DNA of 64,000 bases from Patescibacteria group bacterium (GTDB lineage: Bacteria; Patescibacteriota; Minisyncoccia; Phycocordibacterales; SIBU01): NCBI GenBank assembly GCA_038063715.1, contig JBBTUO010000017.1, positions 22,518 to 86,517 of the forward strand, given 5' to 3'. The notes below the pieces were generated by a model that made no database searches, was not told where the DNA came from, and saw only the letters and a list, made by a program, of their open reading frames with translations. Positions within the stretch are counted from its first letter, which is position 1, and every line of letters starts with the position of its first letter. Positions 7,924 through 34,770 of this stretch are shown here, piece after piece. Made by a program: the position numbers and the translations under genes.

Positions 7924-7927
7924 TTAT

Positions 7928-14608: not shown

Positions 14609-14615
14609 AGAATCT

Positions 14616-15497: not shown

Positions 15498-15498
15498 A

Positions 15499-16164
15499 AT
15501 GAAAATTTTAAACAAATTTAATAGTGAAAACAGTTTTGACTACGAGAACGGCTTTTACCTTACAGCTAAACCTGACAGACTCGGCAAGCTTTTGGCGCAT
15601 TATGAACTTTATAAAAAAGTTTGCGACCTACCGGGCGCGATTGTTGAATGTGGTGTTTTCAAGGGCGCATCTCTTATAAGATTCGCTACATTCCGAAATC
15701 TTTTTGAAGCGGAACATTCCCGAAAAGTTATCGGTTTTGACATGTATGGAAAATTCCCGCAAACTAAATTCGAAAATGATAAAAAATACCTGAAGAAATT
15801 CATTGAAGCCGCTGGTGAAGAAAGTATTTCAGAGACAGAACTGACGCAGATTTTTGAATTGAAGGATATTAAAAATTTTGAATTAGTTAAGGGTGATATC
15901 AACAAGACTGTTCCAGACTACGTAAAAAACAATCCTCATCTTAAAATTTCCCTACTACATATTGATACTGACGTATATGAACCGGCGGTCACAATCCTGC
16001 GTGAAATGTATGACCACGTTGTAAAAGGTGGAATCATCGCCTTTGATGACTACGGCACTTTCCCTGGCGAGACACAGGCGGTAGACGAATTCTTTAAAGA
16101 TAAAAAGGTAAAAATCCAGAAATTCCCCTTCTCACACATTCCTTCTTTTGTCGTAAAACCATAA
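15499..16164 (+). CDS. TylF/MycF (macrocin O-methyltransferase) family SAM-dependent O-methyltransferase
   Basis: IVECGVFKGASLIRFA and DTDVYEPAVTILREMYDHVVKGGIIAFDDY are characteristic of the TylF family. Confidence 0.78.
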   Translation: MKILNKFNSENSFDYENGFYLTAKPDRLGKLLAHYELYKKVCDLPGAIVECGVFKGASLIRFATFRNLFEAEHSRKVIGFDMYGKFPQTKFENDKKYLKKFIEAAGEESISETELTQIFELKDIKNFELVKGDINKTVPDYVKNNPHLKISLLHIDTDVYEPAVTILREMYDHVVKGGIIAFDDYGTFPGETQAVDEFFKDKKVKIQKFPFSHIPSFVVKP

Positions 16165-16170
16165 ACTCTC

Positions 16171-17031
16171 ATGAAGTCCACAATAAAAGAAATGCCGATT
16201 GCCGGTCAATTATTAAAAAACCTGGGAGCATTGAACCGAAATATCAAGCATGTTGTCCAATCCTCCCTGTTCTATCTAAAAAATAAAAAGCTTCTTTCGT
16301 TGAACAAAGTCTTAGCAGGAAGTGCTGCGGGTCGACGGGCTTTCATTCTTGCAACTGGCCCATCGATTAAAACTCAAGATCTTTCGCGCCTACAAGGAGA
16401 ATTATGCGTGAGCGTCAGCAATTTTTTCGTTCATCCTGACTTTAAAAAAATCAGTCCGGAATATCACATCTTTCCCGCCTCTCACAAACCTATAACAGTT
16501 GAACAAATGTTAGACTTGCTCCGCGACGCTGAAAAACATTTTCCTGATGGACAAAAAATCTTTATGTCTGCAACAGATAAATATCTCGTTGAAAAATTCG
16601 GCGTGTTTAAAAAACAAAAAGTCTACTATTATTTGATCTCCAGCAGTCCCTTGACTGCACAAGGTATGATTAATTTCTCAAAAAGGCTCCCGATAATACA
16701 GACCAGCCCGCACATAGCCGTATATCTCTCCCTGTATCTGGATGTAAAAGAAATTTATCTTTTGGGTGTGGACCATGACTGGATTTTACATATAGGCGAA
16801 ACGAGACATTTTTATGATGAGAAAAAAAGCGCACTTGCCCAAACCGGCTATAACGAGTGGTTAGAAAGCGATTTAGGTACCGAGTGTGAAGCGTATGGGC
16901 GCCTGTGGAAAATATATCGGCAAATAAGAACCTACGCGACCAAACATAAAGTTGTCATAATTAATGCAACAACCGGTAGTTTGCTTGACGTGTTCCCTAG
17001 AGCCAATCTGGAAGAAATTTTAAAAAAATAA
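16171..17031 (+). CDS. DUF115 (Maf/MptE-like) family protein, putative glycosyl/ulosonic-acid transferase
   Basis: AFILATGPSIKTQDLSRLQGELCVSVSN matches the GPSL....N Rossmann-like core of DUF115 (motility-accessory-factor family). I have no direct family confirmation. Confidence 0.4.
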   Translation: MKSTIKEMPIAGQLLKNLGALNRNIKHVVQSSLFYLKNKKLLSLNKVLAGSAAGRRAFILATGPSIKTQDLSRLQGELCVSVSNFFVHPDFKKISPEYHIFPASHKPITVEQMLDLLRDAEKHFPDGQKIFMSATDKYLVEKFGVFKKQKVYYYLISSSPLTAQGMINFSKRLPIIQTSPHIAVYLSLYLDVKEIYLLGVDHDWILHIGETRHFYDEKKSALAQTGYNEWLESDLGTECEAYGRLWKIYRQIRTYATKHKVVIINATTGSLLDVFPRANLEEILKK

Positions 17032-17868
17032 ATGAGTAAAGCAAGAAAAATTTTAAAATCAATCACGCCGCCATTCATCTGGAATGGGGCAAGAGCTTTG
17101 GTGTGGCCTAAAACCAAACAATACAGTGGAGATTTCAAAACTTGGGCCGAAGCCAAAGCACTTACTTCAGGCTACGACACTCCGTTAATTTTGGAAAAAG
17201 TACAAAGCGCAGCACTAAAAGTAAAACGCGGTGAAGCGGCTTATGAACGTGACTCGGTTAATTTCAGTACCATAGAGTACTCGTGGCCTCTCCTAGCGGG
17301 ACTTTTGTGGATTGCGAGCCAAAATGAAAACAAACTAAGCGTACTTGATTTTGGCGGTTCACTCGGTTCAAGCTACTACCAAAATAGGAAATTTTTGGCG
17401 CATCTCAAAAGCTTAAGTTGGTCTATTGTCGAACAAAAACACTTTGTAGAGTTTGGTCATAAAAATCTCACAGATGAGCATTTGAAATTCTACACCGACC
17501 TAAAAGAGTGTGCTGTGGCAGAAAAACCTGATGTTTTTCTGCTTTCGAGTGTTCTACCCTATATTGAAAAGCCCTACGAAATTTTGGAACTAGTTCGACA
17601 ATTAAACCTGAAATATATTATCATAGATCGCACCCCATTCTTCACACAGCCAAGCATCCTCCCCGATCGAATTACTGTCCAACAATCTTCAAAAAAAATC
17701 TATGACGCGAGTTATCCGGCATGGTTTTTAAATGAACATAAACTCCTAAGATTTTTAAGTACCGATTATGAATTGATAGCCGATTGGCAAGCGCTGGCGG
17801 GCAAAATTCCACTTGGGAATGTCATAGCGGAAGATAAAGGATATATATATGTTCGAAAAAATATTTAA
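17032..17868 (+). CDS. Putative SAM-dependent methyltransferase (TIGR04325-like family often found in glycan loci)
   Basis: The N-terminal ITPPFIWNG motif and VLDFGGSLGSSYY Gly-rich loop are followed by a Rossmann-like segment. Confidence 0.4.
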   Translation: MSKARKILKSITPPFIWNGARALVWPKTKQYSGDFKTWAEAKALTSGYDTPLILEKVQSAALKVKRGEAAYERDSVNFSTIEYSWPLLAGLLWIASQNENKLSVLDFGGSLGSSYYQNRKFLAHLKSLSWSIVEQKHFVEFGHKNLTDEHLKFYTDLKECAVAEKPDVFLLSSVLPYIEKPYEILELVRQLNLKYIIIDRTPFFTQPSILPDRITVQQSSKKIYDASYPAWFLNEHKLLRFLSTDYELIADWQALAGKIPLGNVIAEDKGYIYVRKNI

Positions 17869-18799
17869 TCGTCCTGAGCTTCAAAGTAACCCTCCGGTGC
17901 TGGTTGACATCGGAGCCTCCGGCGCGCTGTACCCTCATTGGGAGCAGATTGCCAAATATTGCATTTGCATTGCCTTTGACCCGGACTTACGGGAAATGAA
18001 GCACCTGGACAGCGGCACATCGCCCTATCGAGAACTTTTCGTTCATAACTCAATCGTATCAGCAGAGAAAAAATTGGAGAGTAATTTTTACTTGACCAAA
18101 TCCCCATACTGTTCGAGCACGCTCGTACCTGCTGTTGAACCATCCATTTCTGTAGCTCCTCTTTTTGAAATTGAGAAAAAAGTGGTCTTAAAAACTGAAA
18201 ATCTTGTTGACGTCCTAAGGGCAAAAAACATTTCTCACGTCGACTGGTTTAAAACCGATTCCCAAGGCACCGACCTTCGTATTTTCAAAAGTCTTGGGGA
18301 AGAAACTTTACGTCGTGTTCTGATAGCTGACCTTGAACCTGGAATTATAGACGCCTACAAAGGCGAGGACAAGGCATGGCACGTACTTCAATTCATGGAC
18401 GAAAAAAATTTTTGGATGAGCGACATGAGAGTAATGTCTGTGAAAAAGATCCCGAGAAATTGGAAAAAACTTTCGAACGAGCGAGATCGAACGTTTAGAA
18501 GCGGCTCAGCAGATTCGCCTGGCTGGACAGAAATGTCTTTTATAAGCGACGGCACACAAGAAGATTTCGACATTCGGGAATTTCTATTGCTCTGGGTCTT
18601 CGCTACCATCAAAAACCAGCACGGCTTCGCCTTTGATATCGCCACCCGTGGCACGGAAAAATTCTCCGATGTGATCTTCCTAGAGCTAGCGACCGAATCC
18701 GAAAAAAGCGCCACCCGCAAACAAAGATATAATAACCGAACCACTAAAATTATGCGCTTCACTAACCGTCTCAAAAAAATTGTGAAAAAAATTTTATGA
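17849..18799 (+). CDS. FkbM-family methyltransferase-like protein
   Basis: LVDIGASGALYPHW resembles the FkbM DIGAN.G motif. Confidence 0.45.
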   Translation: MFEKIFNRPELQSNPPVLVDIGASGALYPHWEQIAKYCICIAFDPDLREMKHLDSGTSPYRELFVHNSIVSAEKKLESNFYLTKSPYCSSTLVPAVEPSISVAPLFEIEKKVVLKTENLVDVLRAKNISHVDWFKTDSQGTDLRIFKSLGEETLRRVLIADLEPGIIDAYKGEDKAWHVLQFMDEKNFWMSDMRVMSVKKIPRNWKKLSNERDRTFRSGSADSPGWTEMSFISDGTQEDFDIREFLLLWVFATIKNQHGFAFDIATRGTEKFSDVIFLELATESEKSATRKQRYNNRTTKIMRFTNRLKKIVKKIL

Positions 18800-19815
18800 C
18801 ATCCGCAACAGTCTCGTTACAACGTCATTTCTGCACCCTTTTCGATAGAGGGTTTTTGTTTAAAGGGTTAGCCCTTTATAAATCCTTAATGAAACATGCT
18901 GTAAATTTTACCTTATGGATTTTGTGCATGGATACCGAAACCTATAATGTACTAAAACAGCTTAATCTTCCGAACGTACGCCTCCTGACACTCTCTGACG
19001 TGGAGGATGAACAACTCCAAACCGCCAAACAAAACCGTAGTTCACGAAAATACTGCTTTACGCTATCCCCATCGCTCCCCCTCTACATTCTTAAAAATCA
19101 CGATATAGAAAGTATTAGCTACCTAGATGCGGACTTGTACTTTTTTAGCTCTCCGGAGGTTATATATAAAGAGATGGAAAGTAAATCAATTATGATAATT
19201 CCTCACCACCTCGGGCCAACACGGAAAGAAAAAGAAAAGGAGGTCGGCAAGTACAACGTCGGGATGCTAATATTTAAAAAAGATGAGAACGGACTTGCTT
19301 GTCTACGATGGTGGCGTGAACAATGCATTCTGTACTGCGATGACCAGATCCGGCCGGGACACTACGACGACCAAAAGTTCCTTGATTATTTTGAAGAAAA
19401 ATTCAAAGGCGTACACGTGCTAAAAAATCGCGGAGCAAATCTCGCACCATGGAATATTGAGCGTGACAAAATACACATACAGAAAAATATTGTTTTTGTT
19501 GGCAACGACCCGCTAGTATTCTTCCACTTTTCAGGCTTCCAATTGTACGAAAAATCCTTTATGCTACCCTACGGGCCCTACACTTTCCACGAATATACGC
19601 GCTCTTCGCTCTTTAAAGATTTCATCTACAAACCGTACTCTAATTGCTTGTATCAAACATTAAACGATATCCGCCGGATAAGACCTCTATGGAATTACGG
19701 GCTGACGCCCCGACCGAAATTGTTAAAAAGTCTTGAGCAACTTTTTTACAACAGCCTATACTTCCCCACTTGGCGGCTCGCAAAAAAAATAACATCACTA
19801 CTCAAGAACAAATAA
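18796..19815 (+). CDS. Putative GT-A fold glycosyltransferase (nucleotide-diphospho-sugar transferase, DxD motif)
   Basis: An LDADLYFF DxD-containing segment follows a Rossmann-like N-terminal half. Placement in a glycan operon supports the call, but the assignment is tentative. Confidence 0.4.
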   Translation: MTSATVSLQRHFCTLFDRGFLFKGLALYKSLMKHAVNFTLWILCMDTETYNVLKQLNLPNVRLLTLSDVEDEQLQTAKQNRSSRKYCFTLSPSLPLYILKNHDIESISYLDADLYFFSSPEVIYKEMESKSIMIIPHHLGPTRKEKEKEVGKYNVGMLIFKKDENGLACLRWWREQCILYCDDQIRPGHYDDQKFLDYFEEKFKGVHVLKNRGANLAPWNIERDKIHIQKNIVFVGNDPLVFFHFSGFQLYEKSFMLPYGPYTFHEYTRSSLFKDFIYKPYSNCLYQTLNDIRRIRPLWNYGLTPRPKLLKSLEQLFYNSLYFPTWRLAKKITSLLKNK

Positions 19816-22392: not shown

Positions 22393-24258
22393 GTGAAAAC
22401 ATATATTCTTGGAATTTCAGCATACTACCACGATTCCTCGGCAGCACTGCTGTGCAATGGAGAAATTATCGCCGCTGCTCAAGAGGAAAGATTTTCTAGA
22501 AAAAAAGCGGACCCAAGATTCCCCAAATCATCTATTGAATACTGCCTCGCTGAAGCCAGAATTGGAATTGAAGACATTGACCATGTAGTATTTTATGAAA
22601 ATTCTTTAAGAAAATTCGAGAGGCTCTGTGAGTCGTATTTCGCGTTTGTACCCCGTGGTTTTGATTTCTTCAAACATTCATTTCGAACATGGTCAAGCTC
22701 AAAATTACAGACAAAAAACAACATTCTGAAAGAGCTGGGTGGTAAATTTTGTGGAGAATTCCACTTCACGGAACATCACGCTTCTCATGCGGCGAGCGCC
22801 TTCTTCCCATCTCCTTATGACGAAGCGGCGATTCTCACAATTGACGCTGTCGGAGAATGGTCAACAAGCTCTCTAGCTTACGGAAACGACCATAACATCA
22901 AAATGCTGAAAGAAATGCGTTTCCCGCATTCTCTGGGGATGCTCTACTCGGCATTTACCTATTACACTGGATTTAAGGTCAACTCGGGCGAGTATAAACT
23001 TATGGGACTTGCCCCTTACGGACGACCTTTATATGCTGACCTTATTAAAAAAAATCTCATTGAGATATATCCTGACGGATCGTTATGGATGGATATGAGC
23101 TATTTCAATTACTGTTATGGTTCTACCATGACCTCGCCTAAATTTCATCAATTGTTTGGCGGATCGCCTCGAGCGCCGGAAACCGATATCCAGCAAAAAG
23201 ACATGGACATAGCAGCCTCCATTCAAGCAGTAACCGAAGAAATAATCATAAAGATGGCCCAATATGCACAAAAAGAGACAGGATCAAAAAATCTTGTTTT
23301 AGCCGGAGGGGTGGCCTTAAATTGCGTCGCGAATGGGAAATTGTTACGAGAAGGACCTTTCGAAAACATCTGGGTACAGCCAGCCGCAGGGGACGCCGGA
23401 GGCTCTTTAGGCGCCGCCTTACTTTTCTGGCACCAAAAATTAAGCAACACGAGAATACCACAAAAAACTGACTCCCAGAAAGGTACCATTTTGGGACCCA
23501 CATTTTCAAATAGTGATATAAAAAGTATATTGGATAGTCGTACACTACACTATGAATATTTCGCGGATGAATCGAAGTTGTTGGAAGCGGTAACGGAAGC
23601 ACTGACTGAAGAAAAAATAATCGGCTGGTTTCAAGGCCGAATGGAATACGGGCCACGATCGCTAGGATGTCGAAGCATTATCGGCGATGCACGATCTCAA
23701 AAAATGCAACAGATCATGAATCTTAAAATAAAATTCCGAGAGTCCTTCCGGCCATTCGCTCCAAGCGTGCTGAAAGAATTTGCTCACGAAATTTTTGAAG
23801 TTACGCCCGAAGTCGACGATCCGTATATGCTCTTCGTAGCTCCGATAAAAGAAAATTGCAAACGACAGTTGACCGCGGAAGAGAAAACCAAAATGCAAGA
23901 TCCCGACTTAAGAATCAGGGTAACTGTTCCCCGCTCAAAATATCCCGCGATTACCCACGTTGACTATTCTGCAAGAATTCAAACGGTAGATGAAAAGAGG
24001 CATGGGCGCTATTACCGTTTGATAAAAAAATTCCATGAAAAAACCGGCTCTCCCCTTATAGTCAATACCAGCTTTAATATCCGTGGCGAGCCAATAGTGT
24101 GCGATCCCGAAGACGCTATACTCTGTTTTTTAGCAACAGATATGGACTGTTTAGTAATGGAAAATTTTATCATTAAGAAAGAAGAGCAAGACAAAAATTT
24201 GCTTGCATACGCGAATCTTTCCAGGGAGCGCCATAAAAAAATGTACGCTCTAGATTAA
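22393..24258 (+). CDS. NodU/CmcH-family O-carbamoyltransferase
   Basis: ILGISAYYHDSSAALLCNGEIIAAAQEERFSRKK is the hallmark N-terminus. The C-terminal YrdC-like half is present, 621 aa. The start codon is GTG. Confidence 0.9.
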   Translation: MKTYILGISAYYHDSSAALLCNGEIIAAAQEERFSRKKADPRFPKSSIEYCLAEARIGIEDIDHVVFYENSLRKFERLCESYFAFVPRGFDFFKHSFRTWSSSKLQTKNNILKELGGKFCGEFHFTEHHASHAASAFFPSPYDEAAILTIDAVGEWSTSSLAYGNDHNIKMLKEMRFPHSLGMLYSAFTYYTGFKVNSGEYKLMGLAPYGRPLYADLIKKNLIEIYPDGSLWMDMSYFNYCYGSTMTSPKFHQLFGGSPRAPETDIQQKDMDIAASIQAVTEEIIIKMAQYAQKETGSKNLVLAGGVALNCVANGKLLREGPFENIWVQPAAGDAGGSLGAALLFWHQKLSNTRIPQKTDSQKGTILGPTFSNSDIKSILDSRTLHYEYFADESKLLEAVTEALTEEKIIGWFQGRMEYGPRSLGCRSIIGDARSQKMQQIMNLKIKFRESFRPFAPSVLKEFAHEIFEVTPEVDDPYMLFVAPIKENCKRQLTAEEKTKMQDPDLRIRVTVPRSKYPAITHVDYSARIQTVDEKRHGRYYRLIKKFHEKTGSPLIVNTSFNIRGEPIVCDPEDAILCFLATDMDCLVMENFIIKKEEQDKNLLAYANLSRERHKKMYALD

Positions 24259-24265
24259 AATAGTT

Positions 24266-24628
24266 ATGAATTTTATCCAAAAAATCTGGTCAAAAATATC
24301 ACGCCGAATACTGAAACTCGGGCGTAATTACGTTTTGATAATTTTGTATTATGTTATGTTACCCATCATAGCTTTAGCGGGTTCCAAATTAGTTCTTAAA
24401 AAGTCTACGGAAAAAAGTCTTTGGCTAAAGTGGGGTGACAAAATAAATCCAGATATGGCCCCTGCGCAGATTAAAAAGGGTTGGATTGTGAACTTTTTCT
24501 CTTGGACTTTTAAATCTGGCAATCTCTGGGCCATATTTTTATTGCCCTTTATTCTGATCGTGAAAGCAACCGAAGACCCTTCCAGCACAACTTCACCGGA
24601 ACTAGCAATGATTTATACACTTTTCTGA
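24266..24628 (+). CDS. Small membrane protein of unknown function (possibly the SxtJ-like partner of carbamoyltransferases)
   Basis: 120 aa with 2-3 hydrophobic helices, translationally coupled to the carbamoyltransferase. Confidence 0.35.
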   Translation: MNFIQKIWSKISRRILKLGRNYVLIILYYVMLPIIALAGSKLVLKKSTEKSLWLKWGDKINPDMAPAQIKKGWIVNFFSWTFKSGNLWAIFLLPFILIVKATEDPSSTTSPELAMIYTLF

Positions 24629-24630
24629 TT

Positions 24631-25659
24631 ATGCTTTACATCCGTCTCATTTTGTCACTAATAGCCTCCATCATTGGAATTATACTAATAATTCCAGGTT
24701 TAATGCTCATGTTTCCGTTCTGGTTTGTTTCTCTTGTTGCCAAAATGGTCGCAAAATTCAAACCCACATTGTCAACATGGGAAGATATAATCGAATTCGA
24801 CCCAGAGCTTGGCTGGCGCTCTAAACCAAATATTGATGCGCACATGGATGTAGACGGAATATATCATATTACCGTAGGTCCCGATGGGTGGAGAGGCAAC
24901 CAAAGCCTGAAAAAAAGTGACACTATTGTCATCGGCGACTCATTTGTGTTTGGGCAAGGTACAGATGACAAAAATCATTTTGCTAACCTAACAAAACATA
25001 CTCAAGTCAAACCTATAGGAGCTCCAGGATATGGCGTTGTACATTATTTGCTTCTGTTAAAAAATCTGTCCTCGGAATTGAAAGGAAAATTGGTGCTGTG
25101 GTTTGTCTATACAGGCAACGACTACCGAGAAAGCGTCCGACCCAGTTCCTATGGCTATCATTTCCCTTTTGTTTTTCGCGATAATGCAACAGAAGCTTGG
25201 GAAATTCAAACATCTCACATACGAGATACGAAGTTACCTTTTCACTTCGAAAAGGGTTATAAAGTATCGATACCGGAACTTGCTGATCTTTTTTCCAAAA
25301 ATTACTTTTCCGATTATGCCTATGGGGCATTTGAGTATCTGGTCGTCGAAGCCAAAAAACACTGCGAAACTCATGGAGCAAAGTTTGCAGTTGTTACCCT
25401 GCCCATTAAGTGGTGTTTGGACGACAGTTACCTGCACAAATTGAAACGCCATTCAGGCAATCCAGAAAACTTTTCTCTGAAATACCCTGACGAGCAAGCA
25501 GGGATTATTTGCAAACGGCACGGAATAACTTTTAAAGCTGGCTCGAGCGAATTTACCACCGAAGACTTTCTGCCAAACGATCTGCACTGGTCTCAAGGTG
25601 GCAACAAAAAAGCCGCTAAAATTATTGATGTATTGCATAAAGATTTCACTTCGAAATAA
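24631..25659 (+). CDS. Membrane-anchored SGNH/GDSL-type hydrolase-like protein
   Basis: An N-terminal TM helix, then a VIGDSFVFGQG (GDS-x) block and a distal DxxH-like region. Confidence 0.45.
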   Translation: MLYIRLILSLIASIIGIILIIPGLMLMFPFWFVSLVAKMVAKFKPTLSTWEDIIEFDPELGWRSKPNIDAHMDVDGIYHITVGPDGWRGNQSLKKSDTIVIGDSFVFGQGTDDKNHFANLTKHTQVKPIGAPGYGVVHYLLLLKNLSSELKGKLVLWFVYTGNDYRESVRPSSYGYHFPFVFRDNATEAWEIQTSHIRDTKLPFHFEKGYKVSIPELADLFSKNYFSDYAYGAFEYLVVEAKKHCETHGAKFAVVTLPIKWCLDDSYLHKLKRHSGNPENFSLKYPDEQAGIICKRHGITFKAGSSEFTTEDFLPNDLHWSQGGNKKAAKIIDVLHKDFTSK

Positions 25660-25660
25660 A

Positions 25661-26530
25661 ATGATTATAGTCAAACTTCAAGGGGGCCTCGGTAATCAAA
25701 TGTTCCAGTACGCGCTGGGACGCAATCTTTCGCTTATCCATAATGTGCCTTTTAAAATTGACTATTCGTATTTAAAAACTTCCAACCAAAGTAACCGCTC
25801 ATTTAAACTTGACGGCTTTCAAATTCGTACCGAGGAGGCAACACAAAAAGAAGTGACCTCCTACACTGGGTTAAATCAAAAAATCTTGGACAGATTCCGC
25901 ACAAGCTCGAATAAAAAGCACATAAAGGAATCATTTCATGGATTTAACGAATATGTTTTGAGGCGCGGCGATGGTTATTTTGATGGCCATTGGAATATGC
26001 AAAGTGAAAAATATTTTCACCCCAATGAAACCGCAATTAGAAAGGATTTTCAACTTACAAAGCCTTTCGGGGCAGACGCGCAAAAAATTGCCGAGACAAT
26101 TGCGAAAGAACCGGCGTCAGTCAGTCTACACATCCGCCGTGGCGACTATGTGTCAATCTCTAAGGTTTCCGAAGTCCACGGTGTCCTACCACTCTCTTAC
26201 TATGAAACGGCCTGCGAGAAAATACTTGATAAATTTCCCAATGCGCATTTTTTTATATTTTCAGACGACATCGCGTGGGCTAAGGAGAATTTCCCTAATA
26301 AGTACAGAGTTAGCTTTGTATCGGATCCAGAAATTACCGACCACGAGGAACTGATACTGATGAGTATGTGCCTGCACAACATCATTGCTAATTCTACTTT
26401 CAGCTGGTGGGGCGCTTGGCTCAATCAAAATCCGGAAAAAATTGTTGTTGCACCAACTCCTTGGTTTCAGTCCTCAACCCACAATACTGACAACATTGTC
26501 CCCGATAATTGGTGGAAAATTAAAATATAA
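25661..26530 (+). CDS. GT11 family alpha-1,2-fucosyltransferase
   Basis: MIIVKLQGGLGNQMFQYA, HIRRGDYV and IIANSTFSWWGAWLNQNPEKIVVAP closely match the conserved blocks of Helicobacter FutC-type alpha-1,2-FucTs. I chose the start at MIIVK. Confidence 0.85.
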   Translation: MIIVKLQGGLGNQMFQYALGRNLSLIHNVPFKIDYSYLKTSNQSNRSFKLDGFQIRTEEATQKEVTSYTGLNQKILDRFRTSSNKKHIKESFHGFNEYVLRRGDGYFDGHWNMQSEKYFHPNETAIRKDFQLTKPFGADAQKIAETIAKEPASVSLHIRRGDYVSISKVSEVHGVLPLSYYETACEKILDKFPNAHFFIFSDDIAWAKENFPNKYRVSFVSDPEITDHEELILMSMCLHNIIANSTFSWWGAWLNQNPEKIVVAPTPWFQSSTHNTDNIVPDNWWKIKI

Positions 26531-26541
26531 TTTATACTGGC

Positions 26542-27456
26542 GTGATGAAAGAAAAATACAAACTTCCAGAAAATTTGACGCATGATATGGGAGGCGAAGG
26601 CGACAATTTGGATGGCCGAATGAGGAATGTCCTGGAACTTCTAGAGGAGGCCCCGCTTGCCTCGCTTACAACAGTTTTAGATATCGGCGCGGGCAAAGGC
26701 CAAGTTCTAAAATGGTTTTCTCAAAGGGGTAAAAAATGCACGGGTATCGGGCTCGAAATAGAATCCTACGGCGCCAATCTCAAAGAATTTAAAGAAAAAC
26801 ATGATATTGATGTCGTAGAAGGCGCAATTGAAAAAATGCCTTTCCCTAAAAAATCTTTTGACGGGGTAGTAATGAGCCACATTCTTGAGCACTGTCCGAA
26901 TATCGGTCTCGCGCTAGCTGAAACAAAAAGAGTTCTGGCCGATAACGGCTGGCTTTTTATTTTCGTACCGCCACACGAGGATCGAATCGCGGGAGGACAT
27001 ATTGCCACAGGTTGGAATATCGGACAACTTATGTATGTACTGCTCGTAAATGGTTTTGACGTAAAAAATGGTAGGTTTATCAAATACGGCTACAACATCT
27101 GTGGTTTCGTTCAAAAAAATAAGCGGCCATTGCCGCCCCTGCGTCATGACCAGGGCGATGTGTACATTTTGCAAAAGGAAGGGTTTTTCCCTGCACCGAT
27201 TAAAACCGCCGATGGCCAAAATGACGGATACTTCGGGGATATAAAATCAATTAACTGGAATCCTGAATCGAAAATCATTCAAAAAATTAAAGGGGTTCCG
27301 AAAAATAACAATAAAATTCTATATGCGATAAAAATCAGCCTATTCAATATATCCAAGCACATCCCCGAAAGAGTAAAAGATGTTTTGAGTCTTCTATTGA
27401 GCAACCGGAAAAATGACGGAAACAATACAATAAACCCTGAAATACTCAGAGGTTAA
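26542..27456 (+). CDS. Class I SAM-dependent methyltransferase
   Basis: VLDIGAGKGQVLKWF motif I. The Methyltransf_11-like core ends at HILEHCP. Confidence 0.7.
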   Translation: MMKEKYKLPENLTHDMGGEGDNLDGRMRNVLELLEEAPLASLTTVLDIGAGKGQVLKWFSQRGKKCTGIGLEIESYGANLKEFKEKHDIDVVEGAIEKMPFPKKSFDGVVMSHILEHCPNIGLALAETKRVLADNGWLFIFVPPHEDRIAGGHIATGWNIGQLMYVLLVNGFDVKNGRFIKYGYNICGFVQKNKRPLPPLRHDQGDVYILQKEGFFPAPIKTADGQNDGYFGDIKSINWNPESKIIQKIKGVPKNNNKILYAIKISLFNISKHIPERVKDVLSLLLSNRKNDGNNTINPEILRG

Positions 27457-27955
27457 GGGTGGAAAGTATTTTTTCAATCTGGAGCGTATCCGTTGTTATT
27501 TTTATGCTCCTACATCCGGCCGCGACAGCAGCTATTGTGTCGCTGTCGTTATCCCCGATAGCAAAACTATTTTCAAGATCTATTCCCAGTTCTTTTGCAG
27601 CATACAGAAACATTCCCGAAGCGGGTTTACGGCACATGCATTTATCCGCTAAATCGTGCGGACAATAATAAAAAGCGTCTATATGAGCAGAGGTCTTTGC
27701 TAAATCATAATTCATCCGGATGTGTAATTTTTCAACAAAGTCGGCTGTCATTTTGCCCCTCGCAACCCCACGCTGATTACTTACGACAATGACCTTAAAC
27801 CCGAGATCGTTAATTTTTTTTATCAGTTCCTGCGCGCCCTGGTTCCAAAAAAATTCATCAAAATTTTTAACATAGTCATGTTCCGAAGGTTTCTTATTCA
27901 AAACCCCGTCTCGATCAAAAAACACTGCTCGATTTAATTTAGGCAAGATTTTCAT
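27446..27955 (-). CDS. gmhB: HAD-IIIA D,D-heptose 1,7-bisphosphate phosphatase-like (GmhB family)
   Basis: VFFDRDGVLN motif I, and DxxD.CxCRKP typical of GmhB/histidinol-phosphatase-like HAD. I set the start at MKILPK, shortening the ORF call. Confidence 0.72.
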   Translation of the reverse strand: MKILPKLNRAVFFDRDGVLNKKPSEHDYVKNFDEFFWNQGAQELIKKINDLGFKVIVVSNQRGVARGKMTADFVEKLHIRMNYDLAKTSAHIDAFYYCPHDLADKCMCRKPASGMFLYAAKELGIDLENSFAIGDNDSDTIAAVAAGCRSIKITTDTLQIEKILSTLNL

Positions 27956-28658
27956 AAAGAGTGCAGTCCCTGCGAGCTTGCTCAAGCATTTCCAAAGTGC
28001 CAATGTCTTGATGATAACCCTTGAGCAGATAGCCGTAAAGAGCACGACTTTCGGCAAGCAACTTTGGAAAAATATCTTTTCCAAAATCGTAATCCCTATC
28101 TTTTGGAATGTACTTAAAAATCTCCGGCTCGACAATGTAAATACCCGCATTACCGACGTTTGTTGTCACATCTTCGGGTTTAGGTTTTTCCTTAAAACGC
28201 AAAATTCGTAAAGCATTATCCATTTCCACAATTCCCTTTGTGCTCGGATTGTCCCACTCTCGAAGGGCGATTGTGGCTACGCCTCCTTTTTTTTCATGAA
28301 ACGAAATCATGTCTTTAAGGTCAAGCTGAAAAATATTATCGCCGTATATAACAATACATCGATCGTCACCTATAAATTTTTCAAAGCGTTTAAAACCACT
28401 GGCGGTTTCCGATAGGGTTGGCTGATGTGAATCATATAGACGGACGCCGAACCGAGAGCCGTCACCAAAATATTCAGTAATTTTCAATGGAAAATAAAAT
28501 GGGTTGAACCCGATATCAATAATACCCTCTTTAGCGAGCCATTCAATGTGGTACTGAAGCAGGGGTTTGCCACCTATATCCACCATCACCTTGGGAATTG
28601 TTTTGGTCAACGGAAGTAGCCGAGTACCCAATCCAGCGCATAAAATAACGGCTTTCAT
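27939..28658 (-). CDS. hddC: Sugar-1-phosphate nucleotidyltransferase (D-glycero-D-manno-heptose 1-phosphate guanylyltransferase-like, HddC/mannose-1-P guanylyltransferase family)
   Basis: MKAVILCAGLGTRLLPLTKTIPKVMV N-terminal nucleotide-binding signature. I chose the start at MKAVIL. Confidence 0.72.
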   Translation of the reverse strand: MKAVILCAGLGTRLLPLTKTIPKVMVDIGGKPLLQYHIEWLAKEGIIDIGFNPFYFPLKITEYFGDGSRFGVRLYDSHQPTLSETASGFKRFEKFIGDDRCIVIYGDNIFQLDLKDMISFHEKKGGVATIALREWDNPSTKGIVEMDNALRILRFKEKPKPEDVTTNVGNAGIYIVEPEIFKYIPKDRDYDFGKDIFPKLLAESRALYGYLLKGYHQDIGTLEMLEQARRDCTLYENLA

Positions 28659-28726
28659 AAGGAATACACTAGCACAGATCTGTTCATAAATCATGTAATT
28701 TTCTAAGCTGGTTTTTGGTTATCAGG

Positions 28727-28735
28727 TGGTATACT
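28727..28735 (+). promoter_or_regulatory. Extended -10 promoter element TGGTATACT located 9 nt upstream of the ATG at 28745 (leaderless-type)
   Basis: tggTATACTattacgctcATG has the same geometry as TGGTATAAT-9nt-ATG upstream of the ATPase gene at 59076. Confidence 0.45.
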
Positions 28736-28744
28736 ATTACGCTC

Positions 28745-29725
28745 ATGATTATCACCAGAACACCCTTACGAATCAGCTTTGCCGGCGGCGGTTCGGACAT
28801 GGCAGACTTCTATCGAAAACATGAGGCGGCCGTTTTGAGCGTGACCATTAACAAATACGTCTATCTGGCAAGCCACCCCAACTTTACACCGGACAAAATC
28901 CTTCTCAAATACCGAAAAACCGAAGAGGTTTCGAATCCGCATGATTTGGAAAACGCCATCGCCGGCAGTGTTCTCTCTCAGCACAAAATAAACGGTCTGG
29001 AAATCCAAGTTCTAGCCGATGTACCCGCGAGCACTGGCATGGGGTCTTCTAGTGCTTTCGCTGTAGGACTCCACCACCTGATGCTCACCTATAAAAACAA
29101 AAAAACAACCTCAGAGGAGCTGGCAAAACTCGCGTGTCGCACCGAAATCGAAAAGCTCAAATCCCCCATAGGTAAACAAGACCAGTACGCCGCGGCGTAC
29201 GGCGGCATGAACCTCATTAAGTTCCTTAAATCGGGCAAGGTAGTGCTAGAGCCGATAAAAATAAAACTAAAAACTCTGAAAGAATTGGAAAGTAATCTGC
29301 TTCTTTTTTATACCGGCGCCACGCGACCAGCAAACACTGTTCTTGCAAAACAAAGGGAAAATATAAAAAAAAGTTCGGAAGCAACAGCAGCCCTCACACG
29401 TATGGTGGAAATTACACATCACATGAAAACGGAACTTGAACTGGGCAATCTGGAAACATTCGGCAAACTCCTTCACAACAGCTGGATGTTGAAGCAAACA
29501 CTCGCCGATACCATTTCGAATCCCGAACTGAATGCTCACTACGAAACGGCGCTAAAAAATGGCGCTACGGGTGGAAAACTCTTGGGCGCGGGTGGCGGAG
29601 GCTTTTTTCTTTTTTACAGCGAAAAAGAAAACCACGCCCGCCTTCGCCGCGCCATGCATATCCTGCGAGAAATTCCTTTCAAATTTTCAAGTGCAGGTTC
29701 TGCGATAGTCTTTGACGATCGTTAA
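28745..29725 (+). CDS. hddA: GHMP kinase, D-glycero-alpha-D-manno-heptose 7-phosphate kinase-like (HddA family)
   Basis: TPLRISFAGGGSD and PASTGMGSSSA GHMP motifs. The ORF call begins at 28715; I prefer 28745 because of the upstream extended -10 element. Confidence 0.75.
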   Translation: MIITRTPLRISFAGGGSDMADFYRKHEAAVLSVTINKYVYLASHPNFTPDKILLKYRKTEEVSNPHDLENAIAGSVLSQHKINGLEIQVLADVPASTGMGSSSAFAVGLHHLMLTYKNKKTTSEELAKLACRTEIEKLKSPIGKQDQYAAAYGGMNLIKFLKSGKVVLEPIKIKLKTLKELESNLLLFYTGATRPANTVLAKQRENIKKSSEATAALTRMVEITHHMKTELELGNLETFGKLLHNSWMLKQTLADTISNPELNAHYETALKNGATGGKLLGAGGGGFFLFYSEKENHARLRRAMHILREIPFKFSSAGSAIVFDDR

Positions 29726-33024: not shown

Positions 33025-34770
33025 TTATAACGCAGCGGACTTTTCAAGAATAAAGTCGCCCAAAACCAAAACATCCATTCCTGAATCAAAAAAACAGCGG
33101 ATAGCTTCGCGCGGGGAACACGCAATCGGTTCGCCCATAATGTTCATGGAGGTATTCAAAACAACAGGCGTACCGGTTATCTTGCCGAACTCTGATATAA
33201 GCCTCCAATAACGGGGGTTGTCTTCCTTAGCCACTGTTTGCGGACGGAGAGTGCCATCGACATGAACAACCGCAGGCAATTCCGCCTTCCTCTCCTTAGT
33301 ACAATCAAAAGAGGTTACCATAAATCTCTCGCTTCTCGGCTTCACAAGATATTTTTCTTTTGCTTCATCTATAAGTGACGGACAAAATGGCCGGAAAGCC
33401 TCCCTAAACTTAACTCGGGCATTTATAATGTCTTTATTCTCAGCCTTCTTTGGACTCATCAAAATAGAACGATTGCCCAGGGCGCGCGGACCAGACTCCA
33501 TTCGTCCTTGAAACCAGCCGACAATCTTATCCTCGGATAACAGACGCGCAGCTTTGAGGGGCGCGTCATCGGACTTTAGATAATGAAGACCTCTCCCCGC
33601 CAGAATTTTTTCAATTTCCTCATTTGTATATTCCGGCCCCCAATACAAATGATTCGCTACGGGACTCTTAAGAGTCCCTTTTTCTTTGGCGGCGTAGAGA
33701 GCGGCGCCGAGTGGCAGACCCGCATCTCCCGGATTTGGGTACGGATGATGCAACTCCACTTTCCCCGACTCCCAAATTCTTTGATTAAGTTTTACATTGA
33801 GGAAAATTCCTCCAGAAGTCGCCAAAACTTTTGTGTTTTCTTTCTCAAGCCACGGCAACACAAACTCCATCGTTTGCTCCTCAAGAATCCGTTGCGCTTC
33901 GGCGGCCACATTTTCCTTGCCATACTTTTTCACAATTTTCTCAATCCGTTGCGCATCATCAGAATGCCAATGAATTGAACCGAGCAATTTAAATTCTTTG
34001 GTTTCGGGAAAGTTATAGGCCTTAACCAGTTCTCCATTTTTAAATTCTGGATAAAACCCATCGAGAACACCCTGAACTTTCGTGAGGTCGCCATAGGGTG
34101 CGAGACCCATGGTTTTTCCCTCCCCATCTCCATGCCACCAACCGATCGCCTCTGTTACATTGCTGTAAAACCAGCCAAGAGAACTTTTGTAATCGTACTT
34201 CGCAAGAGGAGAAATTTTTCCATCCTCCCCTTTCCAGATACATGATGATTTACCGTCTCCAGAACCATCCATTGTGGCGATAATCATTTTTCTATCATCG
34301 TTTGAAGTGAAATACGCCGCGGCGGCATGGGCGAGATGGTGCTCGACAAAGGTCACCTTCGGCAGTTTGTCCAGGAAAAATTCCCGACAGTACAAAGGTG
34401 TTTTTATTCCTGTACTCGGACGATTACCAAAAAATAAACCTCGAACTATTTTTTTTCCCGCAGAATAAATCTTTTCCTTAAAATTCTCGGCTGGTTTTTC
34501 AGGAATAGCAATCTTTTGTCCGAAAATTGTCTCAATCTGATCCCCCACGGCTAGACCGGCGATGGCTATCTCATCAATTTCATGTACAGAAATACCTACT
34601 TGTTTTAAGCAAAATTTAATGGAGGCAAACGGCAAATCGCTTGAATGCTTGACGTGATTAAAACGCTCCTCAGAAACATCCGCTATTATTCGGCCATTAG
34701 AAATAATCGCGGCACCGGCGCCGTGTCCAAAATGAAGGCCTAAAATGATATATTTTTTCTGTGTTGTCAT
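33025..34770 (-). CDS. NodU/CmcH-family O-carbamoyltransferase (second copy)
   Basis: YIILGLHFGHGAGAAIISNGRIIADVSEERFNHVKH N-terminus, 581 aa. Confidence 0.88.
   Translation of the reverse strand: MTTQKKYIILGLHFGHGAGAAIISNGRIIADVSEERFNHVKHSSDLPFASIKFCLKQVGISVHEIDEIAIAGLAVGDQIETIFGQKIAIPEKPAENFKEKIYSAGKKIVRGLFFGNRPSTGIKTPLYCREFFLDKLPKVTFVEHHLAHAAAAYFTSNDDRKMIIATMDGSGDGKSSCIWKGEDGKISPLAKYDYKSSLGWFYSNVTEAIGWWHGDGEGKTMGLAPYGDLTKVQGVLDGFYPEFKNGELVKAYNFPETKEFKLLGSIHWHSDDAQRIEKIVKKYGKENVAAEAQRILEEQTMEFVLPWLEKENTKVLATSGGIFLNVKLNQRIWESGKVELHHPYPNPGDAGLPLGAALYAAKEKGTLKSPVANHLYWGPEYTNEEIEKILAGRGLHYLKSDDAPLKAARLLSEDKIVGWFQGRMESGPRALGNRSILMSPKKAENKDIINARVKFREAFRPFCPSLIDEAKEKYLVKPRSERFMVTSFDCTKERKAELPAVVHVDGTLRPQTVAKEDNPRYWRLISEFGKITGTPVVLNTSMNIMGEPIACSPREAIRCFFDSGMDVLVLGDFILEKSAAL

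Follow-up and report, generated by a model that had tools for sequence, protein, structure and literature searches.

Two carbamoyltransferases in a glycan locus

The window (the whole 64,000-nucleotide stretch of DNA that was analysed) comes from a Patescibacteria MAG (candidate phyla radiation). The two carbamoyltransferase genes which it carries, CT1 and CT2, are surrounded by a glycan locus of roughly 55 kb that includes a Wzm/Wzt ABC transporter for glycan export, two PMT_2-type GT-C enzymes and several GT2 enzymes. An earlier note on this DNA had described four ORFs, namely these two and the genes for a 120-aa and a 342-aa protein, and all four exist where it had placed them (Table 1). 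CT1 opens an operon in which the first three genes are tightly packed, with 7 nt between the CT1 stop and the start of the 120-aa ORF and 2 nt between the latter's stop and the 342-aa ORF.

Table 1. Features of the carbamoyltransferase operon and of CT2 (window coordinates)
Feature	Position	Strand	Remarks
CT1	22393..24258	+	SxtI-type (partnered) NodU/CmcH carbamoyltransferase; GTG start; 621 aa; opens operon
120-aa membrane protein	24266..24628	+	SxtJ C-terminal half fused to SxtK/DUF5989-like helix and tail
C-terminal hexapeptide M-I-Y-T-L-F	24608..24625	+	residues 115-120; invariant Tyr117
342-aa membrane-anchored SGNH/GDSL-fold enzyme	24631..25659	+	module partner; positional equivalent of sxtL
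N-terminal membrane anchor of SGNH protein	24631..24759	+	residues 1-43; uncharged stretch 6-37
Block I, G102-D103-S104	24934..24942	+	predicted nucleophile Ser104; invariant in 21 sequences
Block V, D317-L318-H319	25579..25587	+	Asp-x-His, then Trp-Ser; D317 and H319 invariant
GT11 (alpha-1,2-fucosyltransferase family)	25661..26530	+	Pfam Glyco_transf_11 3.6e-29; operon gene 4
SAM-dependent methyltransferase	26542..27456	+	Pfam Methyltransf_11 1.3e-19; closes operon
CT2	33025..34770	-	stand-alone NodU/CmcH carbamoyltransferase; 581 aa; Pfam domains

The GT11 ORF opens at 25598, its likely ATG being that given in the table, and all related Patescibacteria loci have a GT11 gene immediately 3' of that for the SGNH protein; the position of the methyltransferase is identical in loci L001 and L002. 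The block of carbamoyltransferase, small membrane protein, SGNH protein and GT11 is conserved in at least four distinct Patescibacteria genomes or metagenomes, with gaps of 1-7 nt, and is embedded there among sugar-nucleotide and glycosyltransferase genes. Because in the window the first three of these genes head an operon with GT11 and the methyltransferase inside a surface-glycan locus, their product is likely to be an O-carbamoylated surface glycan.

Both carbamoyltransferases match the two Pfam domains of the NodU/CmcH family (Carbam_trans_N 7.5e-92 and Carbam_trans_C 1.8e-68 for CT1; 1.2e-40 and 2.1e-67 for CT2), which confirms the earlier claim of two full-length enzymes in one glycan locus. 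They have H128-x3-H132, D151 and D334 in common; since their identity is just 32% over the full length they are diverged copies and, as had also been proposed, not recent duplicates. The GenBank record of CT1 is MEK7575014.1 (Patescibacteria group bacterium). An insertion of ~25 residues (about residues 485-512) is present in CT1 and its orthologues and absent from CT2. Downstream of CT2 on its strand are two GT4 glycosyltransferases, and an ORF scan found no SxtJ, DUF5989 or SGNH-like ORF elsewhere in the window; the partnered, SxtI-type class includes CT1 but not CT2. CT2 is a separate, unpartnered enzyme, which probably transfers carbamoyl directly to a sugar in the cytoplasm; the same is thought of WapO (PA5005), the putative carbamoyltransferase for the 7-O-carbamoyl-heptose II of the Pseudomonas LPS core (PMC8005017). 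As described in the literature, WapO is NodU-type, lies among the glycosyltransferases of a glycan locus and is without Sxt-type partners, and heptose-type activation genes (HAD phosphatase, nucleotidyltransferase and GHMP kinase) are also present in the window; by analogy it appears to be the best counterpart of CT2. CT1, unlike WapO, has obligate membrane partners.

The membrane partners of CT1

The 120-aa ORF is a real gene, since it has 8 close, syntenic homologues (44-58% identity) in loci that all have the gene order carbamoyltransferase, small protein, 342-aa protein, GT11, and an exhaustive search (E<=1e-3) gave 335 further, more distant relatives, mostly of about 185 aa. The ORF probably has no GenBank annotation, as the flanking proteins carry consecutive accessions. 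The profile search suggested in that note gave nothing directly: there was no Pfam or NCBIfam match to the 120-aa protein, SxtJ and DUF5989 included, even at E<=10. Relationships were seen by hhalign through the 185-aa family, which matches the window family (probability 99.9%, E 7e-31), SxtJ (98.1%, E 9e-14) and, with its last 52 residues, DUF5989 (89%, E 2e-6). This chain makes the 120-aa protein an N-terminally shortened SxtJ with an SxtK-like tail; judged from these alignments, it lacks the first two SxtJ helices and carries J and K as a single polypeptide. The idea of an SxtJ-type partner therefore holds as to relationship, but the protein is not a plain SxtJ. A full-length fusion of 177 aa sits in the same gene block in Taylorbacteria, and more distant J-K fusions lie directly 3' of a carbamoyltransferase gene and directly 5' of an SGNH gene of the same family (E 1e-69).

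Hydropathy and AlphaFold show two hydrophobic helices in the 120-aa protein, at about residues 22-44 and 87-102, and not the three TM segments originally supposed. There are also an amphipathic helix (73-84) and a short one at the C-terminus; the helices of the model are 2-38, 73-84, 87-102 and 111-119. The charges round the first helix leave its orientation ambiguous. The only invariant columns among 71 members of the family are Y117, T118 and L119. The tail tyrosine is kept in 141/141 fused-family tails and likewise in all 49 of 49 DUF5989 proteins, whose invariant ending is P-F-I-Y-T-L-F.

For the 342-aa protein, the AlphaFold model (pLDDT 87.9, pTM 0.83) has an SGNH fold and an anchor of one helix (residues 2-43), and a Foldseek search against the PDB matched it with probability 1.0 to PatB, OatA and many GDSL/SGNH esterases; the downstream protein is thus the TM-anchored SGNH/GDSL-like protein that had been described. 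The active-site inspection that had been called for found the catalytic set intact. In addition to S104 and D317-x-H319, G130 and N163-D164 are invariant and G162 is found in at least 90% of sequences, so the Ser/Gly/Asn/Asp-x-His set is complete. The anchor has a conserved uncharged stretch of 31-32 residues with P22 and P29; its flanking charges (+1 on the N side, +3 to +4 on the C side) make its orientation ambiguous. The protein has 24 homologues, those named being Parcubacteria/Taylorbacteria. The family profile also picks up the SGNH-like genes that neighbour CT1 orthologues in other phyla (best E 1e-13), whose products are only about 20-26% identical to the window protein. In these partners, some of which carry TPR repeats, the N-terminus is basic and precedes a single TM helix, an arrangement that implies an outward-facing domain. 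Weak matches of the D-x-H-W region to the SGNH-like O-acetyltransferases AlgX/AlgJ (Pfam ALGX E 0.018; PDB E 0.5-1.1) are below significance. Those enzymes share the Asp-x-His-Trp-(Ser/Thr) spacing of the catalytic-His block and are also membrane- or periplasm-associated, but the order in the window protein is that of classical SGNH enzymes, with the Ser ahead of the Asp/His block.

A compact form of the sxtI-J-K-L-type module

Orthologues of CT1 are found in 80 genomes from many phyla at 53-61% identity. SxtJ is a neighbour in 76 of the 80 loci and DUF5989/SxtK in 71, the identity of these flanking ORFs being confirmed by Pfam; a membrane-anchored SGNH-like gene is nearby in 50/80 after profile iteration, and all three are present in 48/80. 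Where the flanks are full the SGNH-like gene is seen in 32/46 loci, usually within 1.2 kb, and it is absent nearby in about 30% of complete loci; in some, such as L025 and L070, it is interleaved between J and K. PGAP names the triad carbamoyltransferase, SxtJ family membrane protein and DUF5989 family protein on Planctomycete plasmids, and an SGNH/GDSL hydrolase beside the carbamoyltransferase in Leisingera; in both, the plasmid-borne module adjoins exopolysaccharide genes. The genes closest to the module differ widely between loci (the 122 nearest neighbours have 185 Pfam families, no family occurring in more than 5), so that it behaves as an autonomous unit. Its SGNH gene is a regular member, as is sxtL in the cluster order sxtI-J-K-L, where SxtL is a GDSL lipase (PMC2679770, PMC2684587).

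It is well supported by sequence comparison that the CT1, 120-aa and 342-aa genes represent a compact, Patescibacterial form of this module. They share its order of carbamoyltransferase, small membrane partner(s) and GDSL/SGNH enzyme, and the intermediate profile establishes homology of the small protein, which has a DUF5989-like tail, to SxtJ; the likeness to SxtK and SxtL was judged from gene order, descriptions and the DUF5989 profile. The window form differs in that J and K are fused, without the first two SxtJ helices and undetected by either Pfam model, in that its SGNH protein has 342 aa against about 370-450 in the partners and 426 in SxtL, and in lying in a surface-glycan operon where saxitoxin has a toxin cluster. 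The carbamoyltransferase/SxtJ/SxtK/GDSL-hydrolase module, known from saxitoxin synthesis, is widespread, and the window carries a variant of it with J and K fused, in a Patescibacterial surface-glycan setting.

Possible routes of the carbamoyl group

The reading that we favour, tentatively, is a relay of the carbamoyl group via tyrosine to the glycan. The formation of carbamoyl-AMP from carbamoyl phosphate and ATP is established chemistry for the TobZ/NodU family, and would be carried out here by cytoplasmic CT1, docked on the J-K protein through the latter's basic cytoplasmic helices. The carbamoyl group would next pass to the invariant tyrosine in the ..IYTLF sequence at the C-terminus, from which the SGNH enzyme would take it via Ser104 and place it on a glycan hydroxyl. 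The logic would be that shown for DltX to DltD and PatA to PatB, except that the group handed on would be carbamoyl and not D-alanyl or acetyl; for this organism we infer the sidedness of the tail and SGNH domain, the chemical steps and the acceptor. The relay is favoured because the DUF5989 ending PFIYTLF fits the FXYXXF motif which, at the extreme C-terminus of a ~50-aa microprotein working with an anchored SGNH enzyme, marks the DltX/DltD and PatA/PatB acyl shuttles (PMC12148441). DltX-DltD (with DltA/DltC/DltB) and PatA-PatB are MBOAT-SGNH systems that acylate envelope polymers through an acyl-tyrosine shuttle. They are comparable in their ATP-dependent cytoplasmic activation, in the single-helix microprotein or fused tail ending F-x-Y-x-x-F with an invariant Tyr, and in an adjoining gene whose product is an SGNH-fold enzyme, membrane-anchored and with a Ser/His/Asp triad. 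Furthermore, across the same loci the carbamoyltransferase (61%) and K (54%) are better conserved than J (29%) and the SGNH protein (26%), which fits a constant step from carbamoyltransferase to K and a variable final acceptor, and the outward-facing SGNH domains of other phyla also count for the relay. The invariant tyrosine tail thus suggests a testable route of carbamoyl groups to extracellular sugars.

Several observations count against the relay. No MBOAT, AT3 or other obvious conduit was found in the module or among the scanned window ORFs, and SxtJ has no conserved catalytic-type residue, so that the access of a cytoplasmic enzyme to an outward-facing tyrosine is unexplained. Carbamoyl-serine adducts, as known from carbamate inhibitors, are usually stable, and the proposed cargo is not an acyl group. 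No homology of DUF5989 to DltX was detectable in Pfam or PDB; the window tail reads M-x-Y-x-x-F, position -6 is variable throughout the fused family and the first Phe of the motif is missing. The loci lacking the SGNH gene, and the ambiguous orientation of both the window SGNH anchor and the first helix of the small protein, also weigh against it. Finally, the block II glycine (G130), which is replaced in the transferases PatB and OatA (PMC12148441), is kept in the window SGNH family, as it is in hydrolases.

This glycine and the missing SGNH genes speak instead for a second possibility, to which we give appreciable if lesser credence: on the cytoplasmic side CT1 could act directly on a sugar hydroxyl of a nucleotide- or lipid-linked glycan intermediate, with J-K as its tether or activator at the membrane, as has been assumed for an SxtI/J/K complex, and the SGNH protein as a true hydrolase that frees the site of O-acyl groups or trims carbamoyl (the 'decarbamoylase' guessed for SxtL). 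Direct action on the hydroxyls of small molecules is what the characterised NodU/CmcH/TobZ enzymes show. Export by Wzm/Wzt implies a glycan completed in the cytoplasm, and WapO is thought to carbamoylate core heptose directly (PMC8005017). In the literature SxtI/J/K are also regarded as a single complex for carbamoylation, and SxtL as a decarbamoylase, but these roles of SxtJ, K and L are predictions. Direct action gives no reason why the tail should be the sole invariant part of the partner protein or match a known shuttle motif, and does not account for the cross-phylum conservation (51-61% identity) of an acceptor-binding enzyme despite differing contexts and presumed glycans. It would be futile for one autonomous operon to encode both a transferase and the hydrolase that undoes its work, and the SGNH gene between J and K in some genomes also fits poorly.

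It is very unlikely that a lipid-linked sugar, carbamoylated by CT1 at the inner side of the membrane, is then moved across by J/K, with about four helices in total, in the manner of GtrA or ArnE/ArnF, the SGNH enzyme or a GT-C enzyme acting on it outside afterwards. Small lipid-linked-sugar flippases are akin in size and helix count to J plus K or the fusion, as judged from consensus sequences, and the GT-C and GT2 enzymes of the window and the outward-facing SGNH partners of other phyla would suit such a route. However, none of the searches made showed similarity to GtrA or SMR-type proteins, whether by sequence or by profile, the window version has just two hydrophobic helices, the invariant tyrosine that the relay would use is left unexplained, and GT-C genes are missing from many of the contexts in which the module is found. 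We also consider it unlikely that the module lies in the glycan locus by chance and has another target, either a small metabolite or a different conserved component of the envelope. Its island-like character in other phyla, the small alkaloid acted on by the cyanobacterial module and the strong conservation of the carbamoyltransferase, suggestive of a constant substrate, argue for this; against it stand the retention of the four-gene block amid sugar genes in Patescibacteria and the exopolysaccharide genes beside the Planctomycete and Leisingera plasmid modules.

The CT1 operon and its small membrane protein

The open reading frames described in the earlier note are all present in the window, at the positions listed in the table. 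The gene upstream of CT1 is divergent, so that CT1 heads an operon of five genes. In both CT1 and CT2 the N-terminal Kae1-like domain (PF02543; 308.8 and 140.5 bits, respectively) and the C-terminal YrdC-like domain (PF16861; 229.8 and 226.4 bits) are matched in Pfam far over the curated cut-offs of 24 and 27 bits, and both are therefore carbamoyltransferases of the NodU/CmcH/TobZ type, as had been proposed. Comparison of the two proteins with each other showed that H128-x3-H132, D151 and D334 (GDAG) of the Kae1-like domain are common to both; the spacing of these residues presumably agrees with that of the metal-binding residues of TobZ. Over their whole length the two enzymes are only 32% identical, which bears out the view that they are diverged rather than recent duplicates; they are therefore either old paralogues or separate acquisitions.

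Features of the window, with strand and description
Feature	Positions	Strand	Description
Wzy_C protein	1459-3747		762 aa; Wzy_C (O-antigen ligase-like) domain and C-terminal TPR repeats
Exporter pair	7105-9202		Wzm-like ABC-2 permease; Wzt-like ATPase with Wzt_C carbohydrate-binding domain
Split transketolase	9213-10867		N-terminal half and pyrimidine/C-terminal half as two genes
Nonulosonic-acid set	13928-17031		CMP-sugar cytidylyltransferase, NeuB-type synthase, TylF-type O-methyltransferase, weak MptE-like ORF
ORF	17032-17868		278 aa
ORF	18796-19815		339 aa
CT1	22393-24258	+	621 aa; first gene of operon
Insertion in CT1	23845-23928	+	residues ~485-512
120-aa ORF	24266-24628	+	ATG 7 nt past CT1 stop
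342-aa ORF	24631-25659	+	ATG 2 nt past stop of 120-aa ORF
GT11 glycosyltransferase	likely ATG 25661	+	downstream of 342-aa ORF
Methyltransferase	26542-27456	+	downstream of GT11; next genes convergent
Sugar-activation set	27446-29725		HAD phosphatase, nucleotidyltransferase, GHMP kinase; directly past CT1 operon
CT2	33025-34770	-	581 aa
GT-C glycosyltransferases	38224-39672, 47304-48668		two PMT_2/ArnT-like membrane enzymes
Coupling-protein ATPase	57244-59076		VirD4/TraG-like, type IV; locus edge

In GenBank, CT1 and the 342-aa protein are MEK7575014.1 and MEK7575015.1; as these accessions are consecutive, it appears that the 120-aa gene between them was left out when the record, a MAG of the Patescibacteria group, was annotated. 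A gene call in ENA (P0001) spans just the last 90 codons of this gene. Eight close homologues of the 120-aa protein were found (44-58% identity) and, wherever their context was available, the order was carbamoyltransferase, small protein, ~343-aa protein, GT11. A profile search run exhaustively over 1.84 billion representatives gave 335 relatives at E<=1e-3, most of them ~185 aa long and matching across their last 120 residues. In a Taylorbacteria genome the same block reads FdtA - DegT - epimerase - carbamoyltransferase - 177 aa - 345 aa - GT11 - GT2, the 177-aa protein being a full-length version of the small protein, and distant members of 187-193 aa lie immediately after a carbamoyltransferase and immediately ahead of an SGNH protein belonging to the same family as that of the window (E 1e-69). 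The gene adjoins a carbamoyltransferase in all related loci, with a gap of 7 nt in the window. With its homologues, its retained gene order and its 335 relatives, the small ORF is clearly conserved in homologous loci, the lack of which would have refuted the earlier note, and is a real gene.

The earlier note suggested that the small protein corresponds to SxtJ-type partners. Direct profile searches of Pfam and NCBIfam did not bear this out, giving no match to the 120-aa protein even at E<=10; this includes PF19588 (SxtJ, 99 positions) and, for the last 49 residues of this protein and of a fused relative, PF19451 (DUF5989/SxtK, 49 positions), against which true DUF5989 ORFs score ~92 bits. Direct alignment of the window family to SxtJ ORFs with hhalign gave 27.6% probability (E 6.5e-4, 55 columns). 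The suggested kinship is recovered via the intermediate 185-aa family, to which the window family aligns with 99.9% probability (E 7e-31). The N-terminal part of the 185-aa family matches SxtJ (98.1%, E 9e-14, 131 columns), and the last 52 residues of the fused family match the whole of DUF5989 (89%, E 2.3e-6, 49 co-linear columns). When the 6-residue tail was removed on both sides the same register was retained over 30 columns with P 0.0033, compared to 0.03-0.2 for control comparisons with unrelated membrane segments. One member of the 185-aa family, P0062, reaches 22.4 bits (2e-4) against PF19588, where the cut-off is 24.4. Since the 185-aa family matches SxtJ and then DUF5989 by profile, it is an SxtJ-SxtK (J-K) fusion; the 120-aa protein, in which no more than roughly the final third of SxtJ is retained, is such a fusion minus the first two SxtJ helices. 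A search of the whole window found neither the lost N-terminal half of SxtJ, not even as a remnant, nor a separate DUF5989.

The AlphaFold model of the 120-aa protein (pLDDT 74.8) begins with a long helix, basic then hydrophobic (residues 2-38), followed by a Lys-rich loop, an amphipathic helix (73-84), a short hydrophobic helix (87-102), an acidic linker and a terminal helix bearing M-I-Y-T-L-F. The model thus has two hydrophobic helices and not the three transmembrane segments previously assigned. The charge bias around the first helix leaves its orientation ambiguous.

The carbamoyltransferase module and its anchored SGNH enzyme

The triad of carbamoyltransferase, SxtJ and DUF5989 is an established one in Pfam and PGAP, and sxtIJKL has entered the textbooks; the kind of system is therefore known. 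Ever since the saxitoxin cluster was described, SxtJ and SxtK have had no known function, although they are always found beside the carbamoyltransferase. In that cluster the order is sxtI (carbamoyltransferase) - sxtJ - sxtK - sxtL (GDSL lipase) (PMC2679770), and a phylogenomic study assigned a common origin to the four genes (PMC2684587). The module described here has the same gene set and order. That J and K "complex with SxtI" and that SxtL serves in "decarbamoylation" are assumptions of the literature (including PMC2679770). DUF5989 is still a domain of unknown function, and our search found no paper mentioning it. What is new is the finding, quantified below, that the anchored SGNH enzyme belongs to the module, and a fused and truncated J-K family of 335 representatives that is missed by current models and seems to be left unannotated in the GenBank record of the window.

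The 80 genome loci analysed were those encoding the closest relatives of CT1 (53-61% identical), from Planctomycetota, Acidobacteriota, Verrucomicrobiota, Proteobacteria (including SAR11 and Rickettsiales), Nitrospirota and others. Small ORFs beside these carbamoyltransferases are identified by Pfam as SxtJ (~135 aa) and DUF5989 (~50 aa; ~92 bits), names also given by PGAP on Planctomycete plasmids. With HMMs built from the locus ORFs, SxtJ was found in 76 and DUF5989 in 71 of the 80 loci. Beside the CT1 orthologues of other phyla, the profile of the window SGNH family picks out ORFs of ~350-450 aa (E down to 1e-13); after iteration, an SGNH gene was present in 50/80 loci, and together with both SxtJ and DUF5989 in 48. 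Where at least 4.5 kb was available on both sides the SGNH gene was found in 32 of 46 loci, usually within 1.2 kb, and it was not nearby in ~30% of these complete loci. In loci of Rickettsiales and SAR11 type the order is SxtJ - SGNH - DUF5989 - carbamoyltransferase. Many of the SGNH partners in other phyla pass Lipase_GDSL_2 of Pfam (40-42 bits against a cut-off of 32.9), and that of Leisingera is named "SGNH/GDSL hydrolase family protein" by PGAP. The partners start with a basic segment and a single hydrophobic helix, which is the signature of an outward-facing anchored protein.

Outside Patescibacteria no enrichment of glycan genes was found around the module: its 122 nearest neighbours carry 185 Pfam families, none of them present in more than five neighbours. 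With flanks as heterogeneous as this the module behaves as an autonomous unit, and J, K and the membrane-anchored SGNH enzyme form one such module across many phyla.

The arrangement varies in detail. In L025 and L070, both of the Rickettsiales/SAR11 group, and in L051 the order is SxtJ - SGNH - DUF5989, which places the SGNH gene between its small partners; the carbamoyltransferase comes directly after DUF5989 in the first two of these loci and lies ~3.5 kb upstream in L051. L044, likewise of the Rickettsiales/SAR11 group, has two opposite-strand SGNH-like ORFs between J and K. In eleven loci from Planctomycetota, Phycisphaerae and some Proteobacteria (L012, L013, L019, L020, L024, L029, L031, L032, L040, L061 and L076) the SGNH partner is 580-830 aa long, its GDSL domain being followed by many TPR repeats. 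In L043, L080 and L088 the module is accompanied by a second carbamoyltransferase or by a protein that has the carbamoyltransferase C-terminal domain only; in the last, from Leisingera, this gene is followed by YjbH/YjbF exopolysaccharide genes. On two Planctomycete plasmids (L085 and L086) a 'sugar O-acetyltransferase' comes after carbamoyltransferase - SxtJ - DUF5989, and the triad adjoins exosortase/EpsI and tyrosine-autokinase exopolysaccharide genes.

The 342-aa protein of the window has 24 homologues, the named ones from Parcubacteria/Taylorbacteria. Its AlphaFold model (pLDDT 87.9, pTM 0.83) is matched by Foldseek to 38 PDB entries at E<=1e-3, all of them SGNH/GDSL and including the O-acetyltransferases PatB and OatA. 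G102-D103-S104 (block I), G130 (block II), N163-D164 (block III) and D317 and H319 (block V) are invariant in 21 sequences, and G162 of the block III GxND is present in at least 90% of these; block V has Asp-x-His spacing, not Asp-x-x-His. The predicted flavodoxin-like fold and the conserved blocks I, II, III and V agree with the earlier description of an SGNH/GDSL-like protein. No Pfam GDSL family matched this protein, its only matches being weak ones to ALGX (Pfam, E 0.018) and GDSL_LA_2490 (NCBIfam, E 0.0014). Comparison with AlgX/AlgJ chains was likewise weak (E 0.5-1.1), and these and the ALGX match centre on the D-x-H-W-S block. The second-best Foldseek hit, CgnD of the crocagin pathway, which has a carbamoyltransferase, is a slow leader peptidase, and its likeness is at the level of the fold only; it was therefore discarded as a lead. 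The N-terminus of the 342-aa protein is a single helix (residues 2-43) with an uncharged stretch of 32 residues; the charges of +1 before and +3 to +4 after this anchor make its orientation ambiguous.

The tyrosine tail and a proposed path of the carbamoyl group

By sequence comparison, the most conserved element of the small partners is a C-terminal tyrosine motif, as in the acyl carriers of the Dlt and Pat systems. In 71 members of the fused family the Y-T-L of the tail gives the sole invariant columns, and the tyrosine is present in 141/141 fused-family tails and in all 49 DUF5989 tails. The DUF5989 ending, P-F-I-Y-T-L-F, is all but invariant, and its F-I-Y-T-L-F fits F-x-Y-x-x-F exactly; the window protein and the fused family have x-I-Y-T-L-[F/Y], variable at the first motif position and without the first Phe. 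F-x-Y-x-x-F is the "acyl shuttle" motif at the extreme C-terminus of DltX, a ~50-aa N-in/C-out microprotein, and at the C-terminus of PatA-type MBOATs; its tyrosine hands the acyl group on to a serine in an anchored SGNH protein (DltD, PatB), and this protein in turn modifies a polymer outside the cytoplasm (PMC12148441). The apparent match of the invariant tail to this acyl-tyrosine motif is also new, in that no published mention of it was found in the literature. Both the Dlt/Pat systems and the module have a membrane-anchored SGNH-fold partner. In the former the tyrosine is loaded by an MBOAT (or AT3) protein; the module is without one, none being found within it in the 80 loci, nor in the Pfam scan of the window, which covered most ORFs of at least 90 aa. 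True DUF5989 proteins gave no Pfam match to the DltX family at E<=10, and searches of PDB sequences with the K and J-K profiles returned chance membrane hits only and no DltX chain. As no sequence homology to DltX was found, the link is one of motif and architecture and not of descent.

In the family of CT1, carbamoyl phosphate and ATP give carbamoyl-AMP, from which the carbamoyl group is transferred to a hydroxyl; all steps that follow are ones that we infer. We favour, tentatively and at rather less than even confidence, a carbamoyl-tyrosine relay, in which CT1 would load carbamoyl on Tyr117 of the 120-aa protein, from where it would pass to Ser104 of the SGNH enzyme and then to a hydroxyl of a fucose-, heptose- or aminosugar-containing glycan made by the locus; that the target is something other than this glycan seems improbable. 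Alternatively, and more conventionally, carbamoylation could occur directly in the cytoplasm, with J-K acting as a tether and the SGNH enzyme as an esterase or decarbamoylase. The block II glycine is replaced in PatB and OatA (PMC12148441), and its retention in the window SGNH family counts against a transferase. Over the same loci the median pairwise identity is 61% for the carbamoyltransferase and 54% for K, against 29% for J and 26% for S, the SGNH partner. Conservation of the first two and variability of S would be expected if the carbamoyltransferase always acts on the tail while S adapts to differing final acceptors. This contrast and the invariant Y-T-L tail point beyond a simple tether, and we regard the conventional alternative as plausible but doubtful.

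The carbamoyl-tyrosine relay is nevertheless not secure. In addition to the retained glycine, there is no MBOAT- or AT3-like conduit, DUF5989 and DltX share no sequence homology, the fused family is without the first Phe of the motif, ~30% of complete loci are without a nearby SGNH gene, and the charge bias leaves sidedness in the window organism ambiguous. SxtJ, moreover, is without an obvious catalytic residue. A flippase-like role of J and K would be a different explanation, which we consider very improbable. The wider proposal, that SxtK/DUF5989 and the J-K fusions are carbamoyl carriers loaded by an SxtI-type enzyme, with the SGNH enzyme as terminal carbamoyltransferase, is rather unlikely as it stands. 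If true, it would amount to a trans-membrane group-transfer relay of a third kind, one that needs neither MBOAT nor AT3 protein and operates in hundreds of bacterial lineages; SxtL would then be a transferase, not a decarbamoylase, and SxtJ/SxtK its shuttle. The mechanistic hypothesis would matter if true, and testing it would cost little.

CT2 and the surrounding glycan locus

A search of the whole window gave no J, K or second SGNH partner near CT2, which is followed by two GT4 genes on its strand. CT2 looks like a stand-alone enzyme by analogy to WapO, which putatively adds the 7-O-carbamoyl group to heptose II in the core of Pseudomonas (PMC8005017). With CT1 partnered and CT2 standing alone, the locus combines two differently organised carbamoylation routes; carbamoylated surface glycans are thus predicted for Patescibacteria, which to our knowledge cannot be cultured alone, with two routes in one locus. 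CT1 has an insertion of ~25 residues in its YrdC-like domain that is also seen in J/K-partnered orthologues; CT2 is without it. This insertion may be where the membrane partners dock.

The remainder of the window is an unusually large glycan locus. It includes a GDP-mannose dehydratase and a fucose-synthase-like epimerase, GT10 and GT11 enzymes, many GT2 and GT4 enzymes, FdtA, a DegT aminotransferase, rhamnose-pathway genes and several methyltransferases. The Wzm/Wzt pair with Wzt_C implies that the glycan leaves by an ABC transporter, and in export of this type a cap at the glycan terminus is recognised by the exporter; a methyl or carbamoyl group from the locus is a candidate for this cap. 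Enzymes of the PMT_2/ArnT type use lipid-linked sugars at the outer face. The genes directly past the CT1 operon resemble a pathway for activation of heptose (or another sugar-1-phosphate), and the same HAD, nucleotidyltransferase and GHMP genes lie downstream of the operon in two related loci (L001 and L002). The two ORFs of 278 and 339 aa gave no Pfam match at E<=1e-3. The split transketolase adjoins an epimerase and a GT10 fucosyltransferase-like gene. The GC content is ~0.41 in the glycan locus, 0.45-0.47 around the coupling-protein ATPase and 0.52 at the opposite end of the stretch.
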